A stretch of DNA of 64,000 nucleotides. Source: Nitrospinaceae bacterium (GTDB lineage Bacteria > Nitrospinota > Nitrospinia > Nitrospinales > VA-1). Below the pieces are notes generated by a model. The model was given only the letters and a program-made list of their open reading frames with translations. It searched no databases and was not told the DNA's origin. This document shows positions 34,482 through 59,736 of the stretch, piece by piece. The stretch covers positions 136 through 64,135 of the forward strand of contig JAJDBH010000210.1 in the NCBI GenBank assembly GCA_029261455.1, read 5' to 3'. The position numbers and the translations under genes are program-made. Each line of letters begins with the position of its first letter. Position 1 is the first letter of the stretch.

Positions 34482-35311
34482 TATACGAAGTACACCATAA
34501 CAAGGGTTAAATGCCAGATCACCATTGCCATTACCGCACCTGCCAAGGGAATGTGGACCAGAAGCCAGGTTTTAAGTAATGTTTGAAGTGCATAATGAAA
34601 GTCAATCTTCCTCTTTTTTTCTGCTAGCGCATAAACCTTGTCCAAATATTCACGTTCCTTTTCATTTAAGAAACGTTCTAATATCATGCATTGCTGGTGC
34701 ACCCAATGCTGAGGTAGGTGGCTACCAAATATATTATTTATGAAAAACCTTGGCCGTTGAAAATATTGCCCCAAGGTTTCCAGATAATGTTCGGCCAGCG
34801 TACTACTACCGGTTTCTTCGGTACACTTCAGAATAAGAGACTCTACTTCCTCTCTTATTTCAGCAAGCTCTCTTGGAATGCGTTCATAAATGACTTCCAC
34901 ACCGCTTCGGGTTAGCTGACGGGGATAAACTTTTTCAATAAAGAGTCCCACTATTCCTGAAATAGAGGTGATATAAAATAGAACCGTCATCACCTGCCCA
35001 TAAAATCCTTTCGACCATATGCCTCCGATGTGTAGCCAAAACAAGAACAGAGCCAGAAACCCGCAAACCACGTGAAGTAGAAACCATCTAGATGAAGAAG
35101 CAAGAGGCAAAAATGGCAATCGCTTACGTGCACTAAAAAGAGAAAGAAAAATCAGTATCCCAAATAATACCCAGCCATTGGCAAAAGCTGAAATACCGAG
35201 GGCGCTATCAATCTGATAGGTCCACATCCATGTCACTAGAAATAAAAGAGTCGCCAAAACCACGTAGACCCAATTTCGGACTAGACTAAAACCCTGTTGA
35301 ATTTTCATCAA
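34481..35311 (-). CDS. Integral membrane protein, putative di-heme cytochrome b (ferric-reductase-like)
   Basis: Multiple TM helices; two H-x13-H pairs (LHVVCG...WLH and VHIPL...WH). Confidence 0.7.
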   Translation of the reverse strand: MMKIQQGFSLVRNWVYVVLATLLFLVTWMWTYQIDSALGISAFANGWVLFGILIFLSLFSARKRLPFLPLASSSRWFLLHVVCGFLALFLFWLHIGGIWSKGFYGQVMTVLFYITSISGIVGLFIEKVYPRQLTRSGVEVIYERIPRELAEIREEVESLILKCTEETGSSTLAEHYLETLGQYFQRPRFFINNIFGSHLPQHWVHQQCMILERFLNEKEREYLDKVYALAEKKRKIDFHYALQTLLKTWLLVHIPLAGAVMAMVIWHLTLVMVYFV

Positions 35312-37007
35312 TATCTATCTTTCTAAAGTCTACTCGGCTCATGGCATCATGCGGGCAGGCAAAAACACAGGCTGGCCCACTAATCTGGTCGGCACACAGG
35401 TCACACTTCGTCGCCTTAAGTATGGGTTTCTGATTCTGAGGGTCTGTAATTAATTGCCCTTCATGATCGTTGATCGACACCATCCTGATATTGGAATAGG
35501 GGCAGGAGTTCGCACAAGTTTCGCAACCAATACAAGTATCATCATTAATAATGACCATACCTCCAGACATGGACCGATGAATCGCACCAGTAGGACAACC
35601 GATCATACAAACAGGATCAGCACAATGCATGCAGGCATTGGCCACCATCCAGTTCCCAAAAGTCTTGCCATGCCTGACAAATCTGGGATTGCCATCATGC
35701 GTTGCGGAGCAAGCCTGAACACAGTCATCACACCGCACACATCGATCAAGATTAATCAGCATCGCCTGAGTTCCATTTATAAAACGTTCTTCAACCGCCC
35801 ACTCCATTAAAGCTCCATCGGTCAAGGTACGATCGATATAATCCTGCAACCGCCTTGACTCAAAGGAAGACTGCGAAGTCGCCTGTCTAAACCCTTCTCT
35901 ACCAGATGACCAGTAAGTGAATAGGTGTTTCTCTACAATTTTACTAGGTACCCGGAGCATTTCTGCGTACCCAATAGCTGTGATGGTCACTCTCATACCA
36001 ACATTAGGTTCTCCCTGCCATACTTGGAACAGTTCGTCCGCTCCGTAAAAATCCCCTGTACCCAAATAGGTTAGAGTCTGCTGGCCATTTCCCCGGTCTA
36101 CAGAAACCCGAGCAAACCCAGCCCGAACCAATAATATTCCATCTGAATAATCGCCCTGATTGGCAATAATCGGTTCATCCTTGATGCCATGGGTTTTATC
36201 ATGACTTTGAAGCTTGTTATAGGTTAGATGCCAATCAAATTTTCCGTAGGTTTCAAAGAGGGTGGCATCTGCCACCTCCTGAAGATCTTTATCATCTAAG
36301 TGAGAAAAAATGGAAGTCGCCCTTAGGTGGGCGTTGAGGGCGTTGGTACGATAACGCTGATCAATGAGGCGGCGCCATCCTTGATCATATTTCCTGAACT
36401 CACGGAGTCCCTGCCAGCGTATCTCCAAAAGCTCTGTATCGGATTCTGCAAAAATAGTGGATGTTCTAGGGGTCCGCCCCAAGGCGGCAAGTTCTCCAAA
36501 TAACGCTCCTTTTCCCAGAGAAGCGGTTTTATTCTTATCTAAAACAGCAGGAACATCTTGGAGAAAAACATGTGATGACCCCAAATCCTCCGCATCTCGA
36601 ACCATAGCATGCAGACCATAGCGTTTTACATCACGGGTTTCCGGAATTTTACTCCGGGTCCAAAGCTGTTTGAGGGCTTGCCAAAAGGTTTTTTTTTGAA
36701 TGGTTCGTCGACCTAGCATTTCACCAGGAAGGCCAGGGAACAACACGACTTTTAGTGAACCGTCCAGAACCAGGAATGCAGAATTGCCATAGTCTCCCTC
36801 GCGGATGACAATGTCTCCCGCTGAGTACTTTACAATCCGCGCATCATTTTTAAGAATTCCTCTGAGAGAGCAATGAGGGGGAAATTTGCTCTCTTCTATC
36901 GCTGCAATCTCTGGAGTGGTCAACAGCCGGTCCACATCCAATTCGGTCATAAGCAGACCGAATGGTTGGTCCCACCTCTGCGGACGCACTTGAGTCGTTA
37001 TAGCCAC
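35286..37007 (-). CDS. Tandem cyclic-nucleotide-binding domains fused to a DmsB/NrfC-like 4x[4Fe-4S] domain
   Basis: IREGDYG...FGELAALGRTPRTSTI; second CNB fold; CVRCDDCVQAC, CMHCADPVCMIGC, CIGCETCANSC, CDLC...CVFAC. Confidence 0.9.
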   Translation of the reverse strand: MAITTQVRPQRWDQPFGLLMTELDVDRLLTTPEIAAIEESKFPPHCSLRGILKNDARIVKYSAGDIVIREGDYGNSAFLVLDGSLKVVLFPGLPGEMLGRRTIQKKTFWQALKQLWTRSKIPETRDVKRYGLHAMVRDAEDLGSSHVFLQDVPAVLDKNKTASLGKGALFGELAALGRTPRTSTIFAESDTELLEIRWQGLREFRKYDQGWRRLIDQRYRTNALNAHLRATSIFSHLDDKDLQEVADATLFETYGKFDWHLTYNKLQSHDKTHGIKDEPIIANQGDYSDGILLVRAGFARVSVDRGNGQQTLTYLGTGDFYGADELFQVWQGEPNVGMRVTITAIGYAEMLRVPSKIVEKHLFTYWSSGREGFRQATSQSSFESRRLQDYIDRTLTDGALMEWAVEERFINGTQAMLINLDRCVRCDDCVQACSATHDGNPRFVRHGKTFGNWMVANACMHCADPVCMIGCPTGAIHRSMSGGMVIINDDTCIGCETCANSCPYSNIRMVSINDHEGQLITDPQNQKPILKATKCDLCADQISGPACVFACPHDAMSRVDFRKIDIDENSTGF

Positions 37008-37127
37008 CCACCACCTCCAAAACGCACAACATGAAGAGGCAAACCTGTCATCTAACTCTGGAGTTGTGACTCTTAATATACTATTAACGATTCAGGGAAA
37101 CCAAAACCCAGGCTATAAACTTCCTCC

Positions 37128-38105
37128 CTATTTATAATCCGCTTTAGCTGGGAGCTTACTTCCAACAACCCCGGTCAAATCTTTTCCCGCTACAGATTTA
37201 ATAAAGATTAAAGCATTTTCTCTTGAAGGTGCGGCTAATAATCCCGCCGCTTCAGAAATTCCACTAAGCGCGGACTTGGCAATCTCAACTCGTTTGTTTT
37301 GCGCTTCCTTATATTTAGCCTCACCAGATTTAGAAATGGCTTCAGTGGCAGAAACCAGCGCCGCCGCTTGACCAATCACATAAAGACTAGCCAACTCCGT
37401 AGGAGTCATTTCAGCATTGGTCTTGATATCGGGTGGATAATGCCTGTGACGCACTGAACCTTGAGAGTATTTAACCAGTTCGAAGTTGGGGTTAATCGGA
37501 TGTCCGGCTCCCAACATTTTAGCCAAGTCATCGGCTTTAAGGTTGGGGTGAGCCAGACCATGGCAAGTCATGCAGTTTTCAGCAACCTCATACTGCATGG
37601 ATGGCCATATCAAACCCGCCGCCTTGGAATCAGCAACCCGTTTGATTTTATGATCCGCCGCTTCCTGATCTCGCTTAACATCCTTCCCACCATAATTATC
37701 ATGAAGCGCCAACCAATCAGAAGACGCACCATGGCAACTTTCACAAGAGGTTCCAGACTTTGCAGCCGACTTGGAACCGGCATCTTTCTTCACAAGCGTG
37801 TAATGGCACAGATAACAGGTTTCATTCCTTTTCATCCGTTTCTGTCCCCCAACAGCACTCAATATTTTCTTGGGAGAGGGTTTACTATCATCTTTAGGCT
37901 CTCGGTGAACAGTCCTAAAAGACGTGTAATGCTTGGTTTTCTCCCAAATCTTGGTCTCTTCTTCATGACATTCCTCACAGAGCTTGGCACCTTTGAAAAA
38001 AGGTTGGGCCATTGATGTAACAGGAAAAACCAGCCATGCTAACGCCAAAACCAACGCCATCAGAGAAAAAGGTTTAAATATGAAATATGTATCATCACGC
38101 TTCAT
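37128..38105 (-). CDS. Periplasmic tetraheme cytochrome c (c554-like)
   Basis: Signal peptide; CEECH, CYLCH, CESCH, CMTCH; start MKRDD behind GAGGG. Confidence 0.88.
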   Translation of the reverse strand: MKRDDTYFIFKPFSLMALVLALAWLVFPVTSMAQPFFKGAKLCEECHEEETKIWEKTKHYTSFRTVHREPKDDSKPSPKKILSAVGGQKRMKRNETCYLCHYTLVKKDAGSKSAAKSGTSCESCHGASSDWLALHDNYGGKDVKRDQEAADHKIKRVADSKAAGLIWPSMQYEVAENCMTCHGLAHPNLKADDLAKMLGAGHPINPNFELVKYSQGSVRHRHYPPDIKTNAEMTPTELASLYVIGQAAALVSATEAISKSGEAKYKEAQNKRVEIAKSALSGISEAAGLLAAPSRENALIFIKSVAGKDLTGVVGSKLPAKADYK

Positions 38106-38185
38106 AACACCCTCACTTTTTAAAGGGAGCGGTAACACAACCCAGCAAATATTGCAGGGCCGGAAAAACCCGATCCACTCTCAAA

Positions 38186-39613
38186 TTAAAATTGATAGAG
38201 AATTTCTGTTCGCAAACCAAAACCGTCACTACGCTTTTCCTGGACAGTATAATGGGTGTCTACTTGGAGCTGGATTCTTTGGGCCAGTCTTTGACGGAAT
38301 TCAAAACCAACCGCTATGTCATCAAATCTTTCACCACTGGTATCTTTTCTACCGGCCAATTCAAACGTAAGACTTGTTCTATGGTGATTCCAAAATGCTT
38401 GGTATCCCGTGGCAAACCCGGCCACATCATCCGCAAAACTATTCAACTCAGACCCAAAATTACCGAGACTGGGAGAGGCAAATAAGATACCTAAAGCCCC
38501 CAAAGGCCCACCAACTATCGCCTCACGACCCACTTGAGTGAAATTTCCAGCCGCAACAAAGGCATTAAAATATACGATGTCATCAGATTTTTCGGGTGTA
38601 AAGGAAGTTTCGGCAGAGAAAAGGGTTCCAGTACCAGCCTTTGCGTTATCTTCTCCATCCGCAACCGAGCTATTAATTCTGAAAGCCGTACTGTAAACCC
38701 CGATTCTTTGAATTGTTGAAAACCCTACATGAAAACTATCACCAGCAGAGTCCTCGTCAGTAACATACACCAAGTCCAGATTCCAAGAGAGATCCTGCAT
38801 ATCTGCAGAATTAAACAACCCAAACATATTCGCAGTATCATCCCGCCCCGCATTGCTTCTTCCCACCTCGTTCCAACCCCACACGAAGGAAGATCTCAAG
38901 CTCGGTATACCTGGAAGATGAATATTATTGCGAGTAATCCCAATGGCATCTATTTCATCATTGAGCATGATGCCCTCTTGGAACTGCAATAATTGCCTTC
39001 CCACAGAAAACCCAAAGTCCAGTGGCTTTGTTCCGGCAGGGTCCAGCTTGGGAAACAGACTTCCCAAGTCACCCTCAAAAAACATGGTCCGGATATCCAT
39101 ATTAAATTCGGACTGACCAGAACCCCGATTATCGTTAAACGATACTCGTGAAAATTGGGTGGGCAAATTTCTATCTAGAGGTCGAGCTCCAATAATAAAC
39201 TTTTCAGTACCTGTTAACTGCACATTAGCGTAAAGATCCAGGCGATTTGCCCATTCAGAAGCAGTACTGTTCGAGCCCGCATTTTCAAACATTTGCAAAC
39301 TCGAACGCATGGTTCCAAAAACCCACAACTGCGGTTGCCAGACTGCTCCCCATGGGGTCTCAAACCCCTCATAAAGATCTCCTACTCCAAGAAAAAGGTC
39401 TCCACCCTCATAAATCAGCGGAGGGCGCGTACCGGTGTCAGAAGGAGGACGCAACTGGATATGCTCCTCAGAAAAGGAGCTCGCCTCTGAGGTGTCTCCC
39501 AATGGAAACCAATCTGCGTAAGCCGGAATAGAAAAGCATAAGACCATACCTGTGAATATAAGCCCGAATAGAACTCTATGAGTTCGGCCTAAAACTGCGC
39601 CATACATTCTCAC
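38186..39613 (-). CDS. Putative outer-membrane beta-barrel (porin-like)
   Basis: Signal peptide ending AYA, amphipathic beta pattern, C-terminal ILYQF BAM signal. Confidence 0.75.
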   Translation of the reverse strand: MRMYGAVLGRTHRVLFGLIFTGMVLCFSIPAYADWFPLGDTSEASSFSEEHIQLRPPSDTGTRPPLIYEGGDLFLGVGDLYEGFETPWGAVWQPQLWVFGTMRSSLQMFENAGSNSTASEWANRLDLYANVQLTGTEKFIIGARPLDRNLPTQFSRVSFNDNRGSGQSEFNMDIRTMFFEGDLGSLFPKLDPAGTKPLDFGFSVGRQLLQFQEGIMLNDEIDAIGITRNNIHLPGIPSLRSSFVWGWNEVGRSNAGRDDTANMFGLFNSADMQDLSWNLDLVYVTDEDSAGDSFHVGFSTIQRIGVYSTAFRINSSVADGEDNAKAGTGTLFSAETSFTPEKSDDIVYFNAFVAAGNFTQVGREAIVGGPLGALGILFASPSLGNFGSELNSFADDVAGFATGYQAFWNHHRTSLTFELAGRKDTSGERFDDIAVGFEFRQRLAQRIQLQVDTHYTVQEKRSDGFGLRTEILYQF

Positions 39614-39655
39614 TCTCTCTTAGCCTCCAAGTATCGCAGAAAGGTTAGTCCTGAA

Positions 39656-41608
39656 TTAATTGTTAGCTTTAAAACTAACTTCTTTTTCCCACAGAATTTC
39701 ATAACCTGCGGCAACGCCGTCAACGACCTCACGGGCACTCATGGCATAGTCAAATCCCCGCCCCTGAATAGCTCCCACTAAATTAGCTGGAGCCATACCC
39801 GCTTTCAATTCGATTTTAGCCTTGTAAGGACCTTTGCCAGTCAGCGCATCGTCATCAACCCGATATTTAGCCCAACGATAACCGGATGGTTCGATACCTC
39901 TTCGATGATTTCGCTCTGTACCTGGCTCACCCGATAACACCAATGACTGGACTGAAGGTCGCACAAAAGGAATTGTTATCAATGGATAAGGGATGGGGAT
40001 GATTCTCTCCCGCTCTCCGCCACGCAGGTTTGAGACTACAAACCGTGATCGCAAGTCAAACAACTGCCCATCCAAAGGAAGCTCCCCATTATGAACAAAT
40101 GTGGATTCTCGATCGCGCACATCCCCATTCGGGTCCAGATCGCCTGATTCGAGAACCACCTTTCCGTCACGGTCTGTCACAGTAACATGGAGCCAGACAA
40201 GGCGCTCTCCTGTAAACCCAGTCGGAACATTATGGCCATCCGTTAGATTACTAACCTTAACCTTAAAGTGTATGCCTTCCTCATTACTCTGCTCGGTAAC
40301 AACTTCTCCCAGATGATAGCCATTTCGCAATACTTCCAGACGTAATTTCCGGGCATATGCCAAATGTTCAAACTGTTTGTTTAAAATCTCACGGGCATCG
40401 TAGCGGTCATCGACTGAGTCCCAACGAACAGGGAACTTCATATCCTCGGTGACCTTGTCTTCAAACTCATCGGTACCCCAGCCGGCTTTATGATCAAACT
40501 CAAGCCACTCTCTCATACTAGCCATTTCCTGAGCCTCCGCGTTATGCGGAAAAATCCCGGGATGAATGACTGAATAGTCCGGCCCCGCAAAAAAGTGACT
40601 GGTGACCTTTCGGTCTTTAGTTGGTTTCCCTCCTACCATGGCAGCAGGTCCAACATCATACCCTGAAGCCACACCCTGCTCTTTACCCATATGACAATCC
40701 TGACAAGTGGTTCCCCTAGCCGCAGCCGGAGAAGTGCGGTACTCGCTAAATGCCTCCTCAAGGCGGAAACCATTAAACAAGGTTACATCGTGGCAAGTTC
40801 CACAAAATACAGGTTGGGAGATGGAAGCAAATTTCTTAACTTCTCTATGAATTTTCCTTCCAGGCTTTCCTTCTTCGGTCACAACGCGGTATTCATCTGT
40901 ATTATCCAGAACACGTGCCATCTCTTCATTACCCATTGGCCCATATACCGGCTCGAGCAAGCCCCCTTGCTCTAAAGCTAATCTCCCACTCCTTTTATTG
41001 TAGTCCTTGTTCAAACGATGACAGACCACACAGGTTATGCCTTCACGGGATGTAGGGTGTCGGTCCAAGTTTGACATAAAAGGAGACTCACCAAGGTTGG
41101 CACCAATGGGGCTGTGGCATCTCAGGCAGAAATCCCCATTCGATCCACTGGACAACTCATTGATCTCACTGCTGAGAGAAAGATAAACCGGGCTCAACTG
41201 TGCATAAGAATGCGACGAAACCGACCACTCTCGATAATGTTTGGGATGACAGGTGCCACAGGTCGCGGCCGAAGGAAATTTACTTTCTGCAAACAGTGCT
41301 TCATGGTCTGCTGCCGCTTGTAGCGCGACATCTTTTCCAGAATTATCTTCACCCGAACCGGTCTTTTTTCCCACAGAATTAGTGGAAGATTCAGAGCCCT
41401 CTTGTGCCACCGCGCTCGCCTTCTTATCCGACATTGCAGAAGCTTTTTCGGAAGAAGCATTATTAGTGGAGCCAGGTACATTCTGGATGCAGGAATAAAG
41501 AAAGAAAAGAGCAAAACCTATTATTGCTAATGACAGAAAAGAGAAACAGTTATTTTTAGAATAAGATTTTAAAGGCAACACATCGGTAGGCTTAGTAAAA
41601 ATTCTCAT
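39656..41608 (-). CDS. Pentaheme cytochrome c, probable lipoprotein
   Basis: LYSC lipobox plus low-complexity linker; CGTCH, CLRCH, CVVCH, CGTCH, CQDCH; GHNVPTG. Confidence 0.88.
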   Translation of the reverse strand: MRIFTKPTDVLPLKSYSKNNCFSFLSLAIIGFALFFLYSCIQNVPGSTNNASSEKASAMSDKKASAVAQEGSESSTNSVGKKTGSGEDNSGKDVALQAAADHEALFAESKFPSAATCGTCHPKHYREWSVSSHSYAQLSPVYLSLSSEINELSSGSNGDFCLRCHSPIGANLGESPFMSNLDRHPTSREGITCVVCHRLNKDYNKRSGRLALEQGGLLEPVYGPMGNEEMARVLDNTDEYRVVTEEGKPGRKIHREVKKFASISQPVFCGTCHDVTLFNGFRLEEAFSEYRTSPAAARGTTCQDCHMGKEQGVASGYDVGPAAMVGGKPTKDRKVTSHFFAGPDYSVIHPGIFPHNAEAQEMASMREWLEFDHKAGWGTDEFEDKVTEDMKFPVRWDSVDDRYDAREILNKQFEHLAYARKLRLEVLRNGYHLGEVVTEQSNEEGIHFKVKVSNLTDGHNVPTGFTGERLVWLHVTVTDRDGKVVLESGDLDPNGDVRDRESTFVHNGELPLDGQLFDLRSRFVVSNLRGGERERIIPIPYPLITIPFVRPSVQSLVLSGEPGTERNHRRGIEPSGYRWAKYRVDDDALTGKGPYKAKIELKAGMAPANLVGAIQGRGFDYAMSAREVVDGVAAGYEILWEKEVSFKANN

Positions 41609-41836: not shown

Positions 41837-42682
41837 TCATAGTCTACGAACAAAGGAATGATGCACTATTAGAGTTAATAAATATTGCACGGCCATAACC
41901 CAGGCAAAGGGGATCAGGCTGGATGAAAGAATTCCAAGAATAGCGAACAGGGCAAGCAGGAAAAGCGGAAGGTCTAGCCCATTCCACCGCCAAAGCAGTA
42001 GAAGAATTTTTATTTTCTCGTAGCAGGCTTTTCGTTGTTCCAAGGTCAAGTCCGCTTGCATATCTTGATCGTCTGATTTCGCCTGCCGCAAAAAACTCCA
42101 TTCACCGCGAAAAAATAATTGTTGCGCCTGCATATAATAAAAATAAAGCACCAGCACCCATGACTTTTTAGCCTTATTTTTTTGGCGGGTACTTTCAATC
42201 TCCCTTTCCATGCCATCAAAGCCTTGCAATATCAAGGTCGCCAGACTTTGCTTACAATAGTCATAAGAGATGGCTCTCAATATAATCAGTCCTGCAATAA
42301 TTTTCAGGACTGGTTCATATTCCGGAAAACCTTTAATGAGCCCTATCACCACCGCAAGGTAGGCAAAGTAGCCAGCGATACCATCAATCAGCCTACCCCA
42401 TTCGCTTGCCATGGCCTTAGCCCGAGCCAGTTGCCCGTCTACACAATCCAGCACCAAAGTCATTTCCAGCAAAATCCCCCCCAAGACCAGGGATACCGGA
42501 CTGGCAAAACTGAACGCATAACCGGAAGCAAAACCTACCAGGACGGAAAAATAGGTCACTTGATTGGGAGTCACCGGAGTGTTCTTTAAAAAACCTACAA
42601 TCTTTTTCGCAATCGGGTCCTGAATATAACGATTGACTGGCTCCACCAAGTCTCCGAAGGCGTGTCCCGATGTCTCACTCAT
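41837..42682 (-). CDS. CDP-alcohol phosphatidyltransferase family protein
   Basis: TPNQVT; DCVDGQLAR-x8-GRLID motif. Confidence 0.88.
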   Translation of the reverse strand: MSETSGHAFGDLVEPVNRYIQDPIAKKIVGFLKNTPVTPNQVTYFSVLVGFASGYAFSFASPVSLVLGGILLEMTLVLDCVDGQLARAKAMASEWGRLIDGIAGYFAYLAVVIGLIKGFPEYEPVLKIIAGLIILRAISYDYCKQSLATLILQGFDGMEREIESTRQKNKAKKSWVLVLYFYYMQAQQLFFRGEWSFLRQAKSDDQDMQADLTLEQRKACYEKIKILLLLWRWNGLDLPLFLLALFAILGILSSSLIPFAWVMAVQYLLTLIVHHSFVRRL

Positions 42683-42685
42683 GGC

Positions 42686-43693
42686 CTACATCCATTTTTC
42701 TTTTTGATACCATTTGATCGTCTCATCCAACCCTCTACTCAGCTCATATTTAGGTTCGAAGTCGAACGTCTTAAAAAAATTTTCCGGTGAAGCTGACCAG
42801 GAGCTCTGACGTATATCAATCATCCTTTGCCGATCAAACAACGCGGGTTTGGAGTTGAAGCTAGACCACGCCTCAAAAAACAAAGCAACAGGAACAAGCA
42901 CCACTTCAGGAACTCTCAAAGTCTTCACATGAACATTCAAAATACGCGCGCACTCTTTCGCAATCTGCTCCCAAACATAAACACGGCCATCAGTAACAAA
43001 ATAACTGTGTCCCTTCTGCTTAGATGGATCGGAAGCAGTGAGCATAGCATCGACTAGGTCAGAAACATAAATCAACGAAAGTTCTTTACCTGCCCTTCCA
43101 ATTTGCAACCCCCAACCTTTCTGAATCAATTTAATGAAAGTAAAAAAGTTTTCTTCTCGAGGACCATACACCACGGGAGGACGAATAACAGTAAGAGGGA
43201 GCGACTGCGAATACTGAATTGCAATTTCTTCTCCCGCAAGTTTTGACTGCCCGTAAAAAGTCACAGGTTTGCAAGGTGTGATTTCATCAACAAGGCTACC
43301 CTGAGAACTGGGACCAGTTGCCGCCAGGCTACTCAGATGGACGATGCCCTTAATCCGGCTCCCACGTTTTTGGCATTGCTCATAGAGATTTGAGCAGGCA
43401 GTCGCATTGACCTGAAAATAACCGGAACGGGATTTCGCCTTAGTCAATCCTGCGCAATGGAAAACATAATCTAACTCCTCCAAAGCAGGGACTATGAAGT
43501 CTGGTTGCGCTAAATCCACTCGGTGAAGGTGCACCTTAGAAGCATCCAGCCATTTGAGATCAGAGGATTCTCTCACCAGTCCATGAACCGTGCAACCAGA
43601 GGCCAAAAGCTGACCTACCAGATGACTGCCGATAAAACCATTCGCGCCGGTGACCAACGCCGTAGCACCTTTAAGGTGTGATGATGCGTTCAT
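42686..43693 (-). CDS. Extended SDR (NAD-dependent epimerase/dehydratase), candidate 3-oxo-ceramide/3-ketosphinganine reductase
   Basis: TGANGFIG, YGQSK, RPPVVYGP; position in operon with spt. Confidence 0.8.
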   Translation of the reverse strand: MNASSHLKGATALVTGANGFIGSHLVGQLLASGCTVHGLVRESSDLKWLDASKVHLHRVDLAQPDFIVPALEELDYVFHCAGLTKAKSRSGYFQVNATACSNLYEQCQKRGSRIKGIVHLSSLAATGPSSQGSLVDEITPCKPVTFYGQSKLAGEEIAIQYSQSLPLTVIRPPVVYGPREENFFTFIKLIQKGWGLQIGRAGKELSLIYVSDLVDAMLTASDPSKQKGHSYFVTDGRVYVWEQIAKECARILNVHVKTLRVPEVVLVPVALFFEAWSSFNSKPALFDRQRMIDIRQSSWSASPENFFKTFDFEPKYELSRGLDETIKWYQKEKWM

Positions 43694-44792
43694 AGATGCG
43701 ATGTCTTTTATAAATAGTTCCCCCTATCCGGCTCATCGGATCGGTAATGCTTTTATTATCTTCCAACAACCAGGACATCTCGCACCATTTTATCTTTTTA
43801 TCCAGAAACAATCTGTAGGTTTCATAATAAAACCAGGCATCAATACCGAGCTTGCGATATTTCTTTTTCACCCCAAGAATAGGAACTCGGTAAGCATTAA
43901 TTTTACTTTTCTTCCATAAAAATCGTGCCCAACCGAAGGGGAACAGGCTGCCATTTAGCTCTATAAGTATCTGGTTGATATCGGGAAAGGCCATGGAAAA
44001 ACCTGCGGGTTCACCTTTAACTTCGGCAATCATACAAAATTCAGGTTGAATAATGGGCTTCACTTCTCGAATAGAAAATTCAAATTCTTTTCGTTTCATA
44101 GGCACGAACCCCCAATTCAGACTCCAAGCAGAATTATAAACATCCCAAAGAATCGAAATTTCTTGATCAAACCGGCTCAGATTCAGAGGCCTTATATTAA
44201 AATGATTCCTTCGCTTTAGCTTTACTGCGGCCTGCTCCAGGTAATCTGGAATCTTTATCAAGTCAAGGCGGAAAGCTACAAGGTCTTTAGCCTTTTGCAG
44301 GCCCCATTCTTCAAAATGTTTTACATAATATTCAGGGTTATAAGGGATGCCCAGCATAGTGGGGGAGTCAAACCCTTCTACCAACAGACCACATTCATGA
44401 TTGGTCGACAAATTCATCGGTCCTATCAGACGAGCATACCCTTTTTCCTGACACCATTGATAAGCCTTGTCCAACAAAAAGCGGAAGAGGTTTGGGTCAT
44501 CCATCGCCTCAAGCATGCCAAACATTCCAGCAAGTTCCGAATGAACTTCCTGATAGCCCTGATCATGAATCAGAGCAATTCTACCCACTGGTGATCGATC
44601 ACTATCAAGCGCCAAAAAAAGATCGACTTCAGCATGTTCGAAAAAAGGATTGATGTCAGGATTCAGGAACTTTTTACGTTCCTGTATAAGGGGAGGAACC
44701 CAGCATGGCTGGTCTTTATAAACTTTCCAGGGTAGACGAATGAATCGTTCCAGATCCTGTTTGGTTTCAACCTTTACTAGTTCAAAACCCAT
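43671..44792 (-). CDS. GNAT-fold N-acyltransferase, bacterial ceramide synthase (CerS/YghO-like)
   Basis: FIRLPW..Y...WVPPL, NPFFEH, GPMNLSTNHECGLLVEGF, YNPEYY, NWGFVP, EMSWLLEDN. Confidence 0.8.
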   Translation of the reverse strand: MGFELVKVETKQDLERFIRLPWKVYKDQPCWVPPLIQERKKFLNPDINPFFEHAEVDLFLALDSDRSPVGRIALIHDQGYQEVHSELAGMFGMLEAMDDPNLFRFLLDKAYQWCQEKGYARLIGPMNLSTNHECGLLVEGFDSPTMLGIPYNPEYYVKHFEEWGLQKAKDLVAFRLDLIKIPDYLEQAAVKLKRRNHFNIRPLNLSRFDQEISILWDVYNSAWSLNWGFVPMKRKEFEFSIREVKPIIQPEFCMIAEVKGEPAGFSMAFPDINQILIELNGSLFPFGWARFLWKKSKINAYRVPILGVKKKYRKLGIDAWFYYETYRLFLDKKIKWCEMSWLLEDNKSITDPMSRIGGTIYKRHRIYERIITP

Positions 44793-44794
44793 TT

Positions 44795-46126
44795 TTACTT
44801 AGGAATAACACCTAACTTTGTCCCAAGCTTCTTGAAAGAACCAAGTACTTTATCAAGATCTTTCTGGTCATGGGCAGAGGTATAGCTGGTTCTAATCATA
44901 GCGTTAAGAGGTGGCACAACGGGTGATACTGCGACTCCTGCAAAAACCCCATCATCAAAAAGGAGTCGGTTCAAATAAAGAGTGAGAGCTTCTTCTCCTA
45001 TTTTTATGGGCACAATAGGAATAGAATTATTATTAACCTGAAAGCCCATATCAAAAAACCCTCTTTTTATATAAGCTGTATTTTCCTGCAACTTATCGAT
45101 ACGCTCTGGCTCATTAATCATGATATCCAGACCCGCAATGACCCCGGCAACAGACGCAGGAGGCAGAGCTGCGGTAAAGATAAATGCCGAAGCTTTATGA
45201 CGAATAAACTCGGTTATCTTGGACTTGGCAGAAATAAACCCACCGATAGACCCCAAGCTTTTGGAAAACGTTCCCATATAAATATCTATTTCGTCTTCCA
45301 AGTTGTAGTAGCTGGCAACGCCCTTGCCATTTTCACCCATGACACCCAGGCCATGAGCCTCATCAACCATGACGTTGGCACCATAATCTTTCGCAAGTTT
45401 CACAATAGCGGGAAGATTGGCAATATCGCCGCTCATACTGAATATACTGTCAGTAATAATTATTTTTCCTTCAACATCTGAATATTTTTTCAAATAATAT
45501 TCAAGATGATCCATATCATTATGCTGATAGCGGACAGTCTTTCCAGGTGCAACCCCACACCCCTCGTAGATACTGGCATGGTTTTCCCGGTCCGAAAAAG
45601 CCACATCCTTTCTACCCAATAGACAGGCGATGGTTCCCTGATTTGCCTGAAACCCCGTGGACATGACAATGGTATCTTCCCGGTTCAAAAAAGAAGAAAT
45701 TTCCCTTTCCAAGGTCTTATGCAGATCGAAGGTGCCATTGAGAAAACGGCTACCGGTACAACCAATGCCGAATTTTTCCAATGCATCTCTAGCCGCTGCG
45801 ACCACACGAGGTTCTTGTGCCAGTCCGAGATAATTATTGGTGGAAACAGAAATAGCTGGCTTCCCGTCAATGACAACATGGCACCCATCAATCTCCTCAA
45901 TCGCTCTGAAATACGGGTAAATCCCCAGTTCCTTGGCTTGTTCTGGCGCAAAATAGCCGAAGCATTTTGCCAGAATCCCTTTGTCTTTACTGTTGGGGGG
46001 GCGCAGGTGGGAATTTTCAAAATCAAACTTCTTTTTCAACAAAGAAGTGATTTTACTCTTCTTTAAATGAGAAGGTTCTCCGTCATTACTTTCAAGTTCA
46101 CTGAGCAGGGTAAAAGGTTTTGTCAT
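44795..46126 (-). CDS. spt: Serine palmitoyltransferase-like PLP alpha-oxoamine synthase
   Basis: YPYFR, NNYLGL, GSRFLNGT, TGFQAN, NHASI, DEAH, GTFSKS; adjacent to a CerS-like gene. Confidence 0.8.
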   Translation of the reverse strand: MTKPFTLLSELESNDGEPSHLKKSKITSLLKKKFDFENSHLRPPNSKDKGILAKCFGYFAPEQAKELGIYPYFRAIEEIDGCHVVIDGKPAISVSTNNYLGLAQEPRVVAAARDALEKFGIGCTGSRFLNGTFDLHKTLEREISSFLNREDTIVMSTGFQANQGTIACLLGRKDVAFSDRENHASIYEGCGVAPGKTVRYQHNDMDHLEYYLKKYSDVEGKIIITDSIFSMSGDIANLPAIVKLAKDYGANVMVDEAHGLGVMGENGKGVASYYNLEDEIDIYMGTFSKSLGSIGGFISAKSKITEFIRHKASAFIFTAALPPASVAGVIAGLDIMINEPERIDKLQENTAYIKRGFFDMGFQVNNNSIPIVPIKIGEEALTLYLNRLLFDDGVFAGVAVSPVVPPLNAMIRTSYTSAHDQKDLDKVLGSFKKLGTKLGVIPK

Positions 46127-46175
46127 AAGTTTCTCATCAGAAATTTATAAGAGTTTAAAACCATAATTTATAGTT

Positions 46176-47228
46176 TCAGTTGGCAGCCTGTTTCCACAAC
46201 TGGTTCAGCGTCGGAAGCAAACCTGCGCAGACAGTTTGGCCGTATAGGGAGTTCTCTCCTTGATCCAAGATCAGTCGGCGATGCGCCTCTTCTAATGCGT
46301 GATAAGGCAGATCAGGAAACAAGTGATGCGTCGCATGAAAGCGAAGCCCCACTGGAGCCCATAAAGGAGTCGTCCATCTATTCCCGGGAATATTGACCGA
46401 GTCCAGCATTTGACTTGGGTAGCTCATCGCATCTTCCTTGGGGTTTTGATAGCGGTGAGCCCCCAGGGTTCGAATGGAATTAACCATAAAAATCAACGCC
46501 TCAACACAATACCACAGGATTAGGGCCATCACAGGAATAATTTCCGTCAAAACGGCCCCCAGAAATGCCCAGGCAAAAATACATGCCAAAAACTCCTGTA
46601 TTTTCCAATCTTCCGCATTCTTCCAGGAAGATTCCGGTCGCTGGTAATCCAAGTCAATAACCAGGGCAGACATCCTGGCCATCAAAAAAAATCTCAATTT
46701 CTTATTAATCAGGGATAGGGGAGTTAGAACTGAAAAACGTGCCAAAAATATAATCGGGACCAGAAATGAAAAAAGAACATGAATGATAATCCACCTTCTT
46801 CCTTTTAAAGCGAATGGGAAATATTCCCCATCCTTTTCGGTCCCATAGAAATTCTGTTTATGGTGATCGAAGTGAACAGACTGATAAAGAAAAATGGGAA
46901 GCATCAAAGGAAAACCACAAAGTATATTCCAGGTCCAACGAAATATCTTGAAGGTGTTTTTTTTGAAATGGACAATCTCATGAATGAATAACACCGCCCG
47001 GTACAAAGACAGACAGGAAAGAGTCACAAAAAATATTTGTCGGGAAGAAAAAACAGGAGCCATCAGGGCCAGAGCAAAAGTACTCCACCCCAGAATGGCA
47101 CTGAATAAAAAATCTACCCAATAAATAAAAGGGTTGGGCCGAAAGAGATCCTTAACCAGTTCTCTCGCCCTGCTCATCGGAAAATCTTCCTGCTCCCTTG
47201 AGTTCTTTTCATCGGTCTGTTGCGTCAA
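46176..47228 (-). CDS. Membrane fatty acid desaturase family protein
   Basis: His boxes HEIVH, HFDHH, HATHH. Confidence 0.88.
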   Translation of the reverse strand: MTQQTDEKNSREQEDFPMSRARELVKDLFRPNPFIYWVDFLFSAILGWSTFALALMAPVFSSRQIFFVTLSCLSLYRAVLFIHEIVHFKKNTFKIFRWTWNILCGFPLMLPIFLYQSVHFDHHKQNFYGTEKDGEYFPFALKGRRWIIIHVLFSFLVPIIFLARFSVLTPLSLINKKLRFFLMARMSALVIDLDYQRPESSWKNAEDWKIQEFLACIFAWAFLGAVLTEIIPVMALILWYCVEALIFMVNSIRTLGAHRYQNPKEDAMSYPSQMLDSVNIPGNRWTTPLWAPVGLRFHATHHLFPDLPYHALEEAHRRLILDQGENSLYGQTVCAGLLPTLNQLWKQAAN

Positions 47229-57286: not shown

Positions 57287-57389
57287 ACCACACCCCTCAC
57301 TCTTAAAGAAATAGGCTCGGGTTGCTTTTGTTATGATTTAGGCCAATATTTTATATGTGGGTGAATCATCCTTTTTCGGAGAGTCATTT

Positions 57390-58553
57390 ATGAAAGCCTT
57401 GGTCCTTGATACTCCTCGTATTGAATGGGACACCACTACGGGAATGAATCTGGCGGATGTGCCCGAACCAGAACTGGATGAATCACTTCGTCCTGCTGAT
57501 TCCAACAAGTGCATCATCAAACCTCTCTATACCGGGTTTTGCGGTTCGGACAAAAGCCTCTGGTTTCGCCACGCGTTTAAAGACATGTTGCTCGACTCTC
57601 GCGACCAGGATGGGCAGCCCTACAGAATTTGCGGGCACGAACTGTTAGGGGAAATTGTCGAAGCAGGCTCTTACTCTCAAAAAAATTACGGTTATAAACC
57701 GGGCGATATCGTCTCGACAGAATCGCATATCTTCTGCGGGGTTTGCCACCAATGCAAAATCGGCGATGCCCATGTCTGCTCGGACCATCTAATTATAGGA
57801 ATCTCCACAGATGGATGTTTTGCGGAACAGGTCAAACTGCCGGCGAAAGAACTGTGGCGCACTGATTTGGATAAAATCCGGCCTGAGGTCGCGGCCATTC
57901 AGGAACCTTTGGGAAACGCAGTGCATGCCTGTAGCCGGGTCGATCTGCGTGGCAAAACTGTTGCTGTATTCGGCTGTGGCACGATAGGACTTTTCACTAT
58001 TCTTGTCGCCCGAGCAATGGGTGCAACAACGATCATTGGTGTTGACCCCTCAAAGGCCAATCTTAAAATCGCGGAGGAACTTGGCGTGGACTCCACCTTA
58101 CGAGTCTCCACGGATCCAATCAAAAATCCCGCCCCTGCCCCGGACCTCGACATCGCTGACAAAATCCGCCAGCAATGTTTCGGCGAAGGGGTCGATGTGG
58201 CCTTTGAAATGTCCGGAAGCAATCAGGCTTTGAACACGGCGATTGCCTCCACCCGCGCCGGCGGGGATATTATTTTATTCGGACTTTCTTCTGGCGACTA
58301 CACTCTGACTAATTTCCAAGACATCATTTTATATGGAAAATCCATGCACAGCGTTGTCGGACGAAAGGTTTTCCAAACCTGGTACATCACCAGCAACCTG
58401 TTGATGTCTCGCGGTCATTCCCTGCAAGACAAAATTTATGATGTCATCTTAAACCGAGGCCAAGGTACGGTTGTCCCGTTCAAGGCTTTTGATAAAATGC
58501 AATTTGAAAAAGCCATCACCTCGCACCCCAAAATTGTGCTGAAATATGACTGA
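57390..58553 (+). CDS. tdh: L-threonine 3-dehydrogenase (Zn-dependent)
   Basis: [36 protein letters not shown]; overlaps kbl. Confidence 0.85.
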
Positions 58554-59736
58554 CAAGAGTTCAGATAGTTTTTGCGCACATCTTCGGTCTGAGTTGGAAA
58601 CGATTCACGAGTCCGGCTTATATAAAGATGAACATATTTTACTGTCTCCTCAGGGGGTCCACCTTTCTACGGCCCACGGTCAGGTCCTTAATTATTGCGC
58701 CAACAATTATCTAGGGTTGGCCAACCACCCGGAAATTCTCGAATTTGCTCACCAGGCTCTCGACCAATATGGTTACGGCATGGCTTCGGTACGATTCATT
58801 TGCGGCACTCAGGACATCCATAAGCAATTAGAGCAAAGCATTTCCGCATTCCTGCAAACTGAAGACACTATTCTCTACTCCTCATGCTTCGATGCCAATG
58901 GCGGATTGTTTGAAACTCTGCTGACGGAAAAAGACGCAGTGATCAGCGACCGACTGAACCATGCAAGCATCATCGATGGAGTACGCCTTTGCAAGGCCAA
59001 CCGGTTTCGTTACAACCATGCCGACATGGGGCATTTGGAAACCCAATTGCAAAGAGCGCAAAAATACCGACATCGCATCATCGCCACCGATGGAGTTTTC
59101 AGTATGGACGGCAATATCGCTCCGCTGAAAGATATTTGTGATCTTGCCGACCGGTATGACTCTATGGTCATGGTCGATGACTCACATGCCACAGGTTTTT
59201 TCGGCAACACCGGTCGTGGCAGTGTTGAGTATCGCAACGTCATGGGCCGGGTGGATATAATCACCTCCACCTTCGGCAAAGCACTCGGGGGGGCCTCGGG
59301 TGGGTTCACCAGCGGGCGCAAAGAAATCATAGACCTTTTGCGCCAGCGCTCACGACCTTATTTGTTCTCCAACAGCCTGTCGCCCATCATTACCGCCACC
59401 ACTATTAAATCTATTGATCTCATTTCAAATTCTTTGGGATTGATCCATAAGCTTCGTGACAATGTGAAATATTTTCGTTCCGCAATTTCCGAGGCTGGGT
59501 TCGAAATCCGGCCCGGCGACCATCCCATCATCCCTATCATGATTGGCGACGCTTCAGCGGCAAAGAAGATGGCCGACCAATTGCTGAAGGAAGGCATCTA
59601 TGTGATCGCCTTCAGCTATCCAGTTGTCCCTAAAGACACGGCGCGGATACGCATTCAGATTTCTGCCGCCCACGAAACCGTCGACCTTGACCAAGCAATT
59701 TCGGCTTTCAAAAAAGTCAAAACTGAAAACACTTAA
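58546..59736 (+). CDS. kbl: Glycine C-acetyltransferase (2-amino-3-ketobutyrate CoA ligase)
   Basis: [48 protein letters not shown]. Confidence 0.95.

Follow-up and report, generated by a model that had tools for sequence, protein, structure and literature searches.

We analyzed a stretch of 64,000 nucleotides from a Nitrospinaceae bacterium (assembly GCA_029261455.1, contig JAJDBH010000210.1, positions 136 to 64,135), hereafter the window, and found five contiguous open reading frames on its minus strand that probably constitute an operon for the synthesis of ceramide and a phosphosphingolipid by the known bacterial pathway. From first to last, the genes are:

46176-47228, minus strand: membrane di-iron desaturase/hydroxylase, a predicted ceramide modifier and accessory gene (350 amino acids (aa), TTG start; PF00487, FA_desaturase)
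44795-46126, minus strand: Spt, a serine palmitoyltransferase-like pyridoxal phosphate (PLP) enzyme (443 aa; Aminotran_1_2)
43671-44792, minus strand: bCerS, a ceramide synthase-like tandem GNAT protein of the bCerS/YghO family (373 aa; no Pfam or NCBIfam family)
42686-43693, minus strand: CerR-like extended SDR reductase (335 aa; Epimerase)
41837-42682, minus strand: CDP-alcohol phosphotransferase, the predicted head-group enzyme, in which Gly104 replaces the fourth signature Asp (281 aa; CDP-OH_P_transf)

An earlier note, made from the letters of the DNA alone, had described these tightly packed genes as an operon of desaturase, spt, cerS, reductase and head-group transferase. This reading is supported by the sequence tests presented below, and the spacing was confirmed exactly, with gaps of 49, 2, -23 and 3 bp, the -23 bp being the overlap. 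Statements at the genome level refer to the genome to which the window belongs (G000; 3.5 Mb, 84.5% complete) and to a set of 120 genomes of the phylum, 18 of which belong to orders other than that of the host.

Orthologues of spt at 70% identity or more were found in 72 of the 120 genomes, all within the host's order. bCerS orthologues (at least 50%) are present in 68, one of them as a 36-aa fragment, with seven more genomes containing only a distant paralogue. The transferase has orthologues in 63 genomes, and a transporter of the MMPL family in 66, while no orthologue of bCerS, the transferase or the MMPL protein was found in any of the 18 genomes from other orders. For 37 of the other 67 bCerS orthologues we fetched the surrounding region, and the order spt-bCerS-cerR-transferase was seen in 35; the other two stop at contig ends. 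Since these four genes keep their order in all but the two truncated regions, the clustering is not due to chance. In genera g5 and g6, type-1 bCerS, the transferase and the MMPL gene are all absent, and five regions around spt show spt-cerR alone. This joint absence should probably be considered a single loss, since the relatives are not independent. The MMPL gene lies inside the operon in most other genera. In the window's genome, the MMPL orthologue is HpnN-like (64% identity to the operon-linked MMPL proteins of other genera) and sits on contig C88 (L091:1865-4321), and in genera g1 and g12 the gene is separated from the operon. One relative (G088) has two spt matches, on contigs C59 and C84, one with bCerS-cerR-transferase and the other with a desaturase and MMPL gene at a contig end, which reflects either a duplication or an assembly overlap.

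The identity of the PLP enzyme was examined by phylogeny, as the earlier note had called for. A first tree of 37 rows was made by a quick method and included eight Nitrospinales rows truncated at an internal Met; 23 of these 37 rows were retained for a careful tree. In it, the window's enzyme, four orthologues and eight Spt references form a 13-row clade (support 100/100) that stands apart from BioF, Kbl and HemA. As references we used annotated orthologues, taken from plasmid records and from E. coli, rather than purified enzymes, the E. coli one being 100% identical to genes that RefSeq names spt. Forcing the Spt rows to group with the BioF-like rows was rejected by the approximately unbiased test (p-AU 2.6e-7, in a topology that also constrains the five BioF-like rows to group together), as was grouping with Kbl (p-AU 2.2e-5), and a BioF or Kbl identity was therefore rejected. 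Among PDB entries, the top matches are the Spt structures 8guh and 3a2b (365 bits), as compared to 288 bits for BioF/Kbl and 213 for cysteate acyltransferase. The GSRFLNGT and GTFSKS motifs that had been pointed out were found at residues 125 and 285, and the motif table contains N98, H183, D254, H257, the PLP lysine K289 and R412. Sulfonolipid and sphingolipid enzymes are separated by Lys281 versus Ala (PMC9304779, available text). The window's enzyme has Ala319 at the position of SulA Lys281, as located by the +30 spacing from the PLP lysine, so identity as a sulfonolipid synthase was also rejected.

Two further members of the family are encoded in the genome. The gene at 58546, which the earlier note had called the true Kbl and set apart from the PLP enzyme, indeed passes the Kbl model TIGR01822 (630 bits, cut-off 493) and adjoins a Tdh-like gene; the other, on contig C151, has BioF as its best model (373 bits of a 426 cut-off). 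The tdh-kbl pair for threonine breakdown occupies window positions 57357-59736, the Tdh-like protein scoring 241 bits, under the curated cut-offs (380). In other orders of the phylum, ten spt matches at 40-43% were found; of the five placed in the 37-row tree, four fell among BioF-like rows and one just outside the Spt clade.

The third gene was compared with E. coli YghO and shares 38.6% identity with it over 376 aa (E 5e-83), being the sole match of YghO in the genome. yghO is the orthologue of Caulobacter CC_1154 and belongs to the E. coli cluster ECD_02850-02854 (PMC9386255, available text); in agreement with the layout described there, we found E. coli yghO to adjoin spt, ACP, reductase and acyl-AMP ligase genes. 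Pfam and NCBIfam gave no match to the third gene, PDB sequence searches returned nothing for it, and the ESM Atlas named only GNAT clusters. Its structure model (pLDDT 91.8) presents a tandem GNAT fold and matches 7q3a, 2wpw and 5kf1 at E about 1e-15 to 1e-14 (best 1.6e-15). There are 45 full-length homologues on plasmids, and in records of Streptomyces, Rubrobacter and Aureispira the homologues lie right next to genes for an Spt-like enzyme and a reductase. The fourth gene contains TGxxGFxG at residue 15 and YxxxK at residue 147, and is the best genome match for four of six reductases from such clusters (Aureispira, Streptomyces, Rubrobacter and E. coli). The lead is wide for the Aureispira reductase (35% identity, 223 bits, with the next genome match at 109 bits) and narrow for that of E. 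coli (89 versus 84 bits); the Roseomonas cluster reductase has no match in the genome at E 1e-4. No hydrophobic leader or segment was found in the protein, the Rossmann motif of which begins at residue 15. Assignment of this gene as CerR is supported by operon position as much as by sequence. The claim of spt, a GNAT-fold cerS and an SDR reductase is supported by these sequence comparisons, the reductase being a probable CerR.

A distant bCerS-like paralogue (33-39% to that of the window; L062-L071) is found head-to-head with a highly reducing polyketide synthase (PKS) of 2,550-2,580 aa, for example at L183:434-14147 (G044) and L184:759-12703 (G043). The synthase presents the order KS-AT-DH-MT-ER-KR-ACP, with no release domain seen, and is followed by a CDP-alcohol transferase, a GT2 gene and a PAP2_3 (Aur1/IPC-synthase-like) gene. 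Since genus g5 keeps spt-cerR but lacks type-1 bCerS, the transferase and the MMPL gene, the PKS-linked set may be a replacement module there, for a branched-chain, inositol-type ceramide. In another relative (G077, L174:1091-7473), a TPP-dependent decarboxylase, a class V aminotransferase and a CDP-alcohol transferase lie close together, which is suggestive of aminoethylphosphonate lipid synthesis.

The last gene matches PF01066 with 41.8 bits (cut-off 22), and its D79, D82, G83, A86, R87, G96 and D100 are invariant in 23 of 23 rows. It fails the canonical signature DxxDGxxAR...GxxxDxxxD, as written in 10.1101/2024.05.09.593427, and was filed as a variant; the fourth Asp (D4) is kept in two rows, both of genus g22. 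The top plasmid matches of the transferase lie in Bacteroidales clusters of NTP-transferase and HAD genes (26-30%), one of them with MIPS, and also have Gly at D4. For Bacteroidales, an unconfirmed alternative inositol route has been described, with diacylglycerol (DAG) proposed as acceptor (PMC9246714, available text). As a third match, from a cytidylyltransferase-SDR-acyltransferase cluster of Parabacteroides, has a slightly higher pairwise score, the subfamily does not name the donor. On contig C124 of the window's genome (L092:5081-10340), MIPS, an IPCT-like NTP transferase, two CDP-alcohol transferases and an HpnL/flippase-like gene are clustered, a candidate set for a CDP-inositol head group or for di-myo-inositol-phosphate; with MIPS, the NTP transferase and both transferases present, CDP-inositol is possible in this genome. 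In some close relatives, MIPS is interrupted by stops. Inositol as a universal head group was rejected, as a MIPS query matched 39 of the 120 genomes and none of the 21 in family f4.

The kinase family of CpgB (PF00781, DAGK_cat) gave no match in the window's genome or in the single-contig, 97-98% complete genomes G074 and G077, leaving a kinase-first route unsupported; weak matches were seen in G020 and G037. Insect ceramide-phosphoethanolamine synthase provides a precedent for direct transfer from a CDP-alcohol to ceramide, and such a transfer is the simplest reading here. Of the earlier claim that the organism makes phosphosphingolipids, the ceramide backbone is thus supported by its genes, while the phospho-head group is inferred, with D4 missing and no donor pathway co-occurring everywhere.

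The first gene matches PF00487 with 92.6 bits, and its histidines H83/H87, H119/H122/H123, H258 (an extra His) and H298/H301/H302 are invariant in 26 of 26 rows. Its structure model (pLDDT 89.8) matches AlkB (Z 13.1) and SCD1 (Z 8.3). Foldseek returned no desaturase match at E 0.001, the best being 8xks_K, 8xqw_M and AlkB, and PDB sequence searches returned nothing for this protein. The gene is found in 43 of the 120 genomes, representing four of 30 genera in one family, and lies no more than 300 bp upstream of spt in 41 of these, the other two being broken assemblies. It was therefore only in part that the earlier placement of a desaturase in the operon stood: the gene adjoins spt, but it is an accessory found in four genera and does not belong to the core operon. 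Three homologues (36-39% identity) were found among 72,556 plasmid records, two of them in ceramide clusters. On a Sphingomonas parapaucimobilis plasmid, the homologue is head-to-head with bCerS in an spt cluster, and on a Diaphorobacter plasmid it is clustered with bCerS, CDP-alcohol transferases, a kinase and LptFG. The latter block on pDCB2 (L109:1-17841; bCerS, two CDP-alcohol transferases, kinase, LptFG and desaturase) is carried by a conjugative IncP plasmid and adjoins mercury-resistance genes. Homologues with a named source belong to Methylomirabilales, Rhodothermales, Iodidimonas, Nitrosomonas and Deltaproteobacteria. Some family members (P0472, P0481 and P0507) occur as fusions, either with Coq4 or with an SDR, in the latter case sometimes together with a polyketide-cyclase domain.

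Several results weigh against reading the five genes as a phosphosphingolipid operon and should be considered together. The PLP enzyme is not a member of any of the three curated Spt lineage models: the best of 11 NCBIfam models was SerpalmtaseCFB with 454 bits of a 640 cut-off, and the scores were 360/500 for the BetaP and 298/670 for the AlphaP model. The CerR-like protein shares only 24% identity with the CerR homologue of E. coli (E 2e-23, which falls short of the 1e-30 filter of PMC11334938, available text), and it is the second match of the Sphingomonas CerR, with 100 bits versus 108 for another SDR. In the transferase, Gly takes the place of D4 in 16 of the 18 Nitrospinota rows and in 119 of 120 close homologues, and mutating any motif residue lowers CDP-AP activity (10.1101/2024.05.09.593427). 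As for the donor, the MIPS family PF01658 was found in one of five near-complete cassette-bearing genomes, arguing further against inositol universality. A LicC-like cytidylyltransferase (contig C70), rejected as universal donor enzyme, is present in 34 of 120 genomes, mostly of two genera, and is absent from three near-complete genomes of the same genus. For the di-iron enzyme, the third plasmid homologue lies in no lipid cluster, and spt or bCerS was nearby in none of 12 metagenome loci with 43-50% homologues, six of which are shorter than 5 kb.

With these points in mind, alternative readings were weighed for each step. For the PLP enzyme, a housekeeping role as BioF or Kbl among unrelated neighbors is extremely improbable: it does score 362-380 bits on the BioF/Kbl models, below all of those cut-offs, but the tree tests reject both placements, the genome already has dedicated Kbl and BioF-like genes, and the linkage to bCerS is conserved. 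Use of cysteate, alanine or glycine, giving a sulfonolipid or 1-deoxy-type lipid, would be in line with the scores under the curated Spt cut-offs, with a clade distinct from tested Spts and with the 1-deoxy and sulfono-ceramides of marine water (PMC11334938, available text). We nonetheless consider it very unlikely, given Ala319, the 365 bits to Spt versus 213 to cysteate acyltransferase, and the need of the head-group transferase for a C1 hydroxyl. More serious, while still unlikely, is that the backbone is a ceramide but the transferase is weakened, non-catalytic or DAG-directed, such that the product is a neutral ceramide. The Gly at D4 in most aligned orthologues, the nearest plasmid relatives in the Bacteroidales alternative inositol cluster, where DAG is the proposed acceptor (PMC9246714, available text), and the failure of the search for a universal donor pathway all point in this direction. 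Against it stand the invariant D1, D2, G, AR, G and D3 of the transferase, the D4 retained in genus g22, and the position of the gene, fixed 3 bp behind cerR and lost jointly with bCerS in g5/g6.

For the di-iron enzyme, the gene neighborhood makes action on a sphingolipid likely. It would be a hydroxylase somewhat sooner than a desaturase, because CCNA_00202 of the DesA family hydroxylates the amide-linked chain in Caulobacter (PMC11324152, available text). A sphingolipid desaturase, which like eukaryotic DEGS1 might act at C4 of the long-chain base, is doubtful. The unsaturated ceramides of marine water (PMC11334938, available text) and the tight linkage to spt speak for it, as does the pattern H(E)xxH / HxxHH / HxxHH. 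The third box of this pattern is histidine-led, and we take the pattern to be of the DEGS type. Yet His boxes cannot tell desaturases from hydroxylases, and Sphingomonas, the genus of one of the plasmid homologues, makes 2-hydroxy-acyl, saturated-base sphingolipids. The sole characterized bacterial ceramide enzyme of the DesA type is, moreover, a hydroxylase (PMC11324152, available text). Alternatively, a general fatty-acid desaturase could have been inserted upstream once and merely carried along, which is conceivable rather than probable. As the carriers belong to four of 30 genera and one family, the linkage in 41 of 43 genomes may be a single event; close homologues outside Nitrospinota are unlinked to ceramide genes in all 12 metagenome loci, and some relatives carry the SDR or Coq4 fusions. 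On the other hand, there is independent linkage in the Sphingomonas and Diaphorobacter ceramide clusters, and a separate desaturase is already present (a different one is present, additionally or instead, in five of five genomes tested).

Returning to the phosphosphingolipid operon as the preferred reading, the following pathway can be proposed. Spt would condense L-serine with a fatty acyl thioester to 3-ketosphinganine, bCerS would add an amide-linked fatty acid by N-acylation, and the CerR-like SDR would reduce the 3-keto group, although for Caulobacter it is disputed whether acylation or reduction comes first (PMC11087976, available text). Judging from the Caulobacter and E. coli orthologues, these three backbone steps would very probably take place. 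The CDP-alcohol transferase would then attach a phospho-alcohol to the C1 hydroxyl of the ceramide, and the gene neighborhood makes it rather likely that this proceeds as ceramide + CDP-X to ceramide-phospho-X + CMP, with no kinase. The di-iron enzyme would act optionally, most likely in O2-dependent hydroxylation of the acyl chain, and the MMPL protein would export the finished lipid, a role that its gene neighborhood slightly favors. A role of the sphingolipid as replacement for lipopolysaccharide (LPS) found no support, as LpxC is present (271 bits); the lipid would therefore sit beside LPS rather than replace it. In the broadest version, most Nitrospinales would make an undescribed phosphosphingolipid by D4-less, kinase-free transfer, with MMPL export and, in four genera, di-iron desaturation to a sphingosine-type ceramide; the di-iron family would be new and shared with the Sphingomonas and Diaphorobacter clusters, and the lipid would be a biomarker of marine nitrite oxidation. 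As a whole, this combination is improbable.

The operon resembles known systems in part. The pathway genes of Caulobacter and E. coli BL21 are Spt, bCerS (CCNA_01212 = CC_1154; YghO, ECD_02850) and CerR (CCNA_01222 = CC_1164; ECD_02852), and the Spt, bCerS and CerR homologues of the E. coli cluster are matched here at 36%, 39% and 24% identity, with the same tandem GNAT and extended SDR. Unlike in these organisms, the genes form one colinear operon that includes neither a specialized ACP or acyl-ACP synthetase nor an LptFG paralogue, and the Bacteroidota type gives the higher scores for Spt. The Caulobacter CerR is reported to be periplasmic (PMC11087976, available text), whereas the CerR-like protein here has no hydrophobic leader. 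As with CpgA/B/C for ceramide-phosphoglycerate in Caulobacter, a CDP-alcohol phosphotransferase is linked to ceramide genes; however, the transferase shares 27% over 173 aa with a CpgA-like protein of a Roseomonas cluster, and the CpgB-type kinase is missing from the three genomes named above. The Gly at D4 is common to the Bacteroidales inositol cluster (MIPS, NTP transferase, BVU_RS13105-like transferase and HAD; PMC9246714, available text), but the Bacteroidales transferases have an Asp one place after D4 where those of Nitrospinota have Tyr, and MIPS is missing from many cassette-bearing Nitrospinota genomes. The di-iron enzyme and CCNA_00202 share a Pfam-level family and a proposed target class, and can be likened at that level only; CCNA_00202 is unlinked from spt, while the gene here is linked. 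In Myxococcus xanthus, an MmpL gene behind spt is a hypothesized exporter (bioRxiv 10.64898/2026.04.12.717747, available text), similar to the MMPL gene in the operon of most other genera and different from the situation in the window's genome and its genus, where it has moved elsewhere (to C88 in the former).

With respect to the surroundings, the GC content of the operon (0.43-0.45) equals that of the rest of the window. On the 5' side, a DksA/TraR-type zinc finger gene and a methyltransferase gene lie on the same strand, and on the 3' side a multihaem cytochrome cluster follows after 228 bp; the flanking genes differ between relatives and were left out of the five parts. Window positions 35286-41608 contain multihaem cytochromes, a probable outer-membrane barrel and a cNMP/4Fe-4S protein. 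Nothing usable came from scans for promoters (12 promoter-like sites versus 11.5 expected by chance) or terminators (14 terminator-like sites versus 8.0 +/- 3.1). In one seawater RNA run (share 0.06), parts of the region are represented by contigs from relatives, two of which bridge the 49-bp gap between desaturase and spt; as the library may contain DNA, this is no evidence of co-transcription. A 50%-representative search returned 517 family clusters at E 1e-30, without gene context. The host is a relative of Nitrospinaceae, as all 11 named genome loci returned for the bCerS gene belong to Nitrospinaceae, Nitrospinales or Nitrospinota (76-92% identity).

Spt-like genes are found in 38 phyla (PMC11334938, available text), and the three-gene core belongs to a known pathway, so extension to a further lineage is by itself modest. 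In the literature searched, no title or abstract start dealt with Nitrospinota sphingolipids; the main text of PMC11334938, as far as available, does not mention the phylum, which its figure or supplement, or Stankeviciute et al. 2022, may list. The earlier suggestion of a lineage outside the classical producers thus stands insofar as the lineage was not found named as a producer in searchable texts, although such genes were already to be expected. This variant is distinguished by its D4-less transferase, by the absence of a kinase and by the link to a desaturase. The operon yields two testable candidates, namely a head-group transferase with an altered catalytic motif that would act on ceramide independently of a kinase, and a di-iron family found in the ceramide clusters of two phyla. 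Among known nitrite oxidizers, Nitrospinae are described as the most abundant in the oceans (PMC8026999, available text), and the genes described here suggest that these nitrite oxidizers may make sphingolipids. Should a distinct sphingolipid be produced by most of the order, it would offer a lipid marker and a source of marine ceramides.

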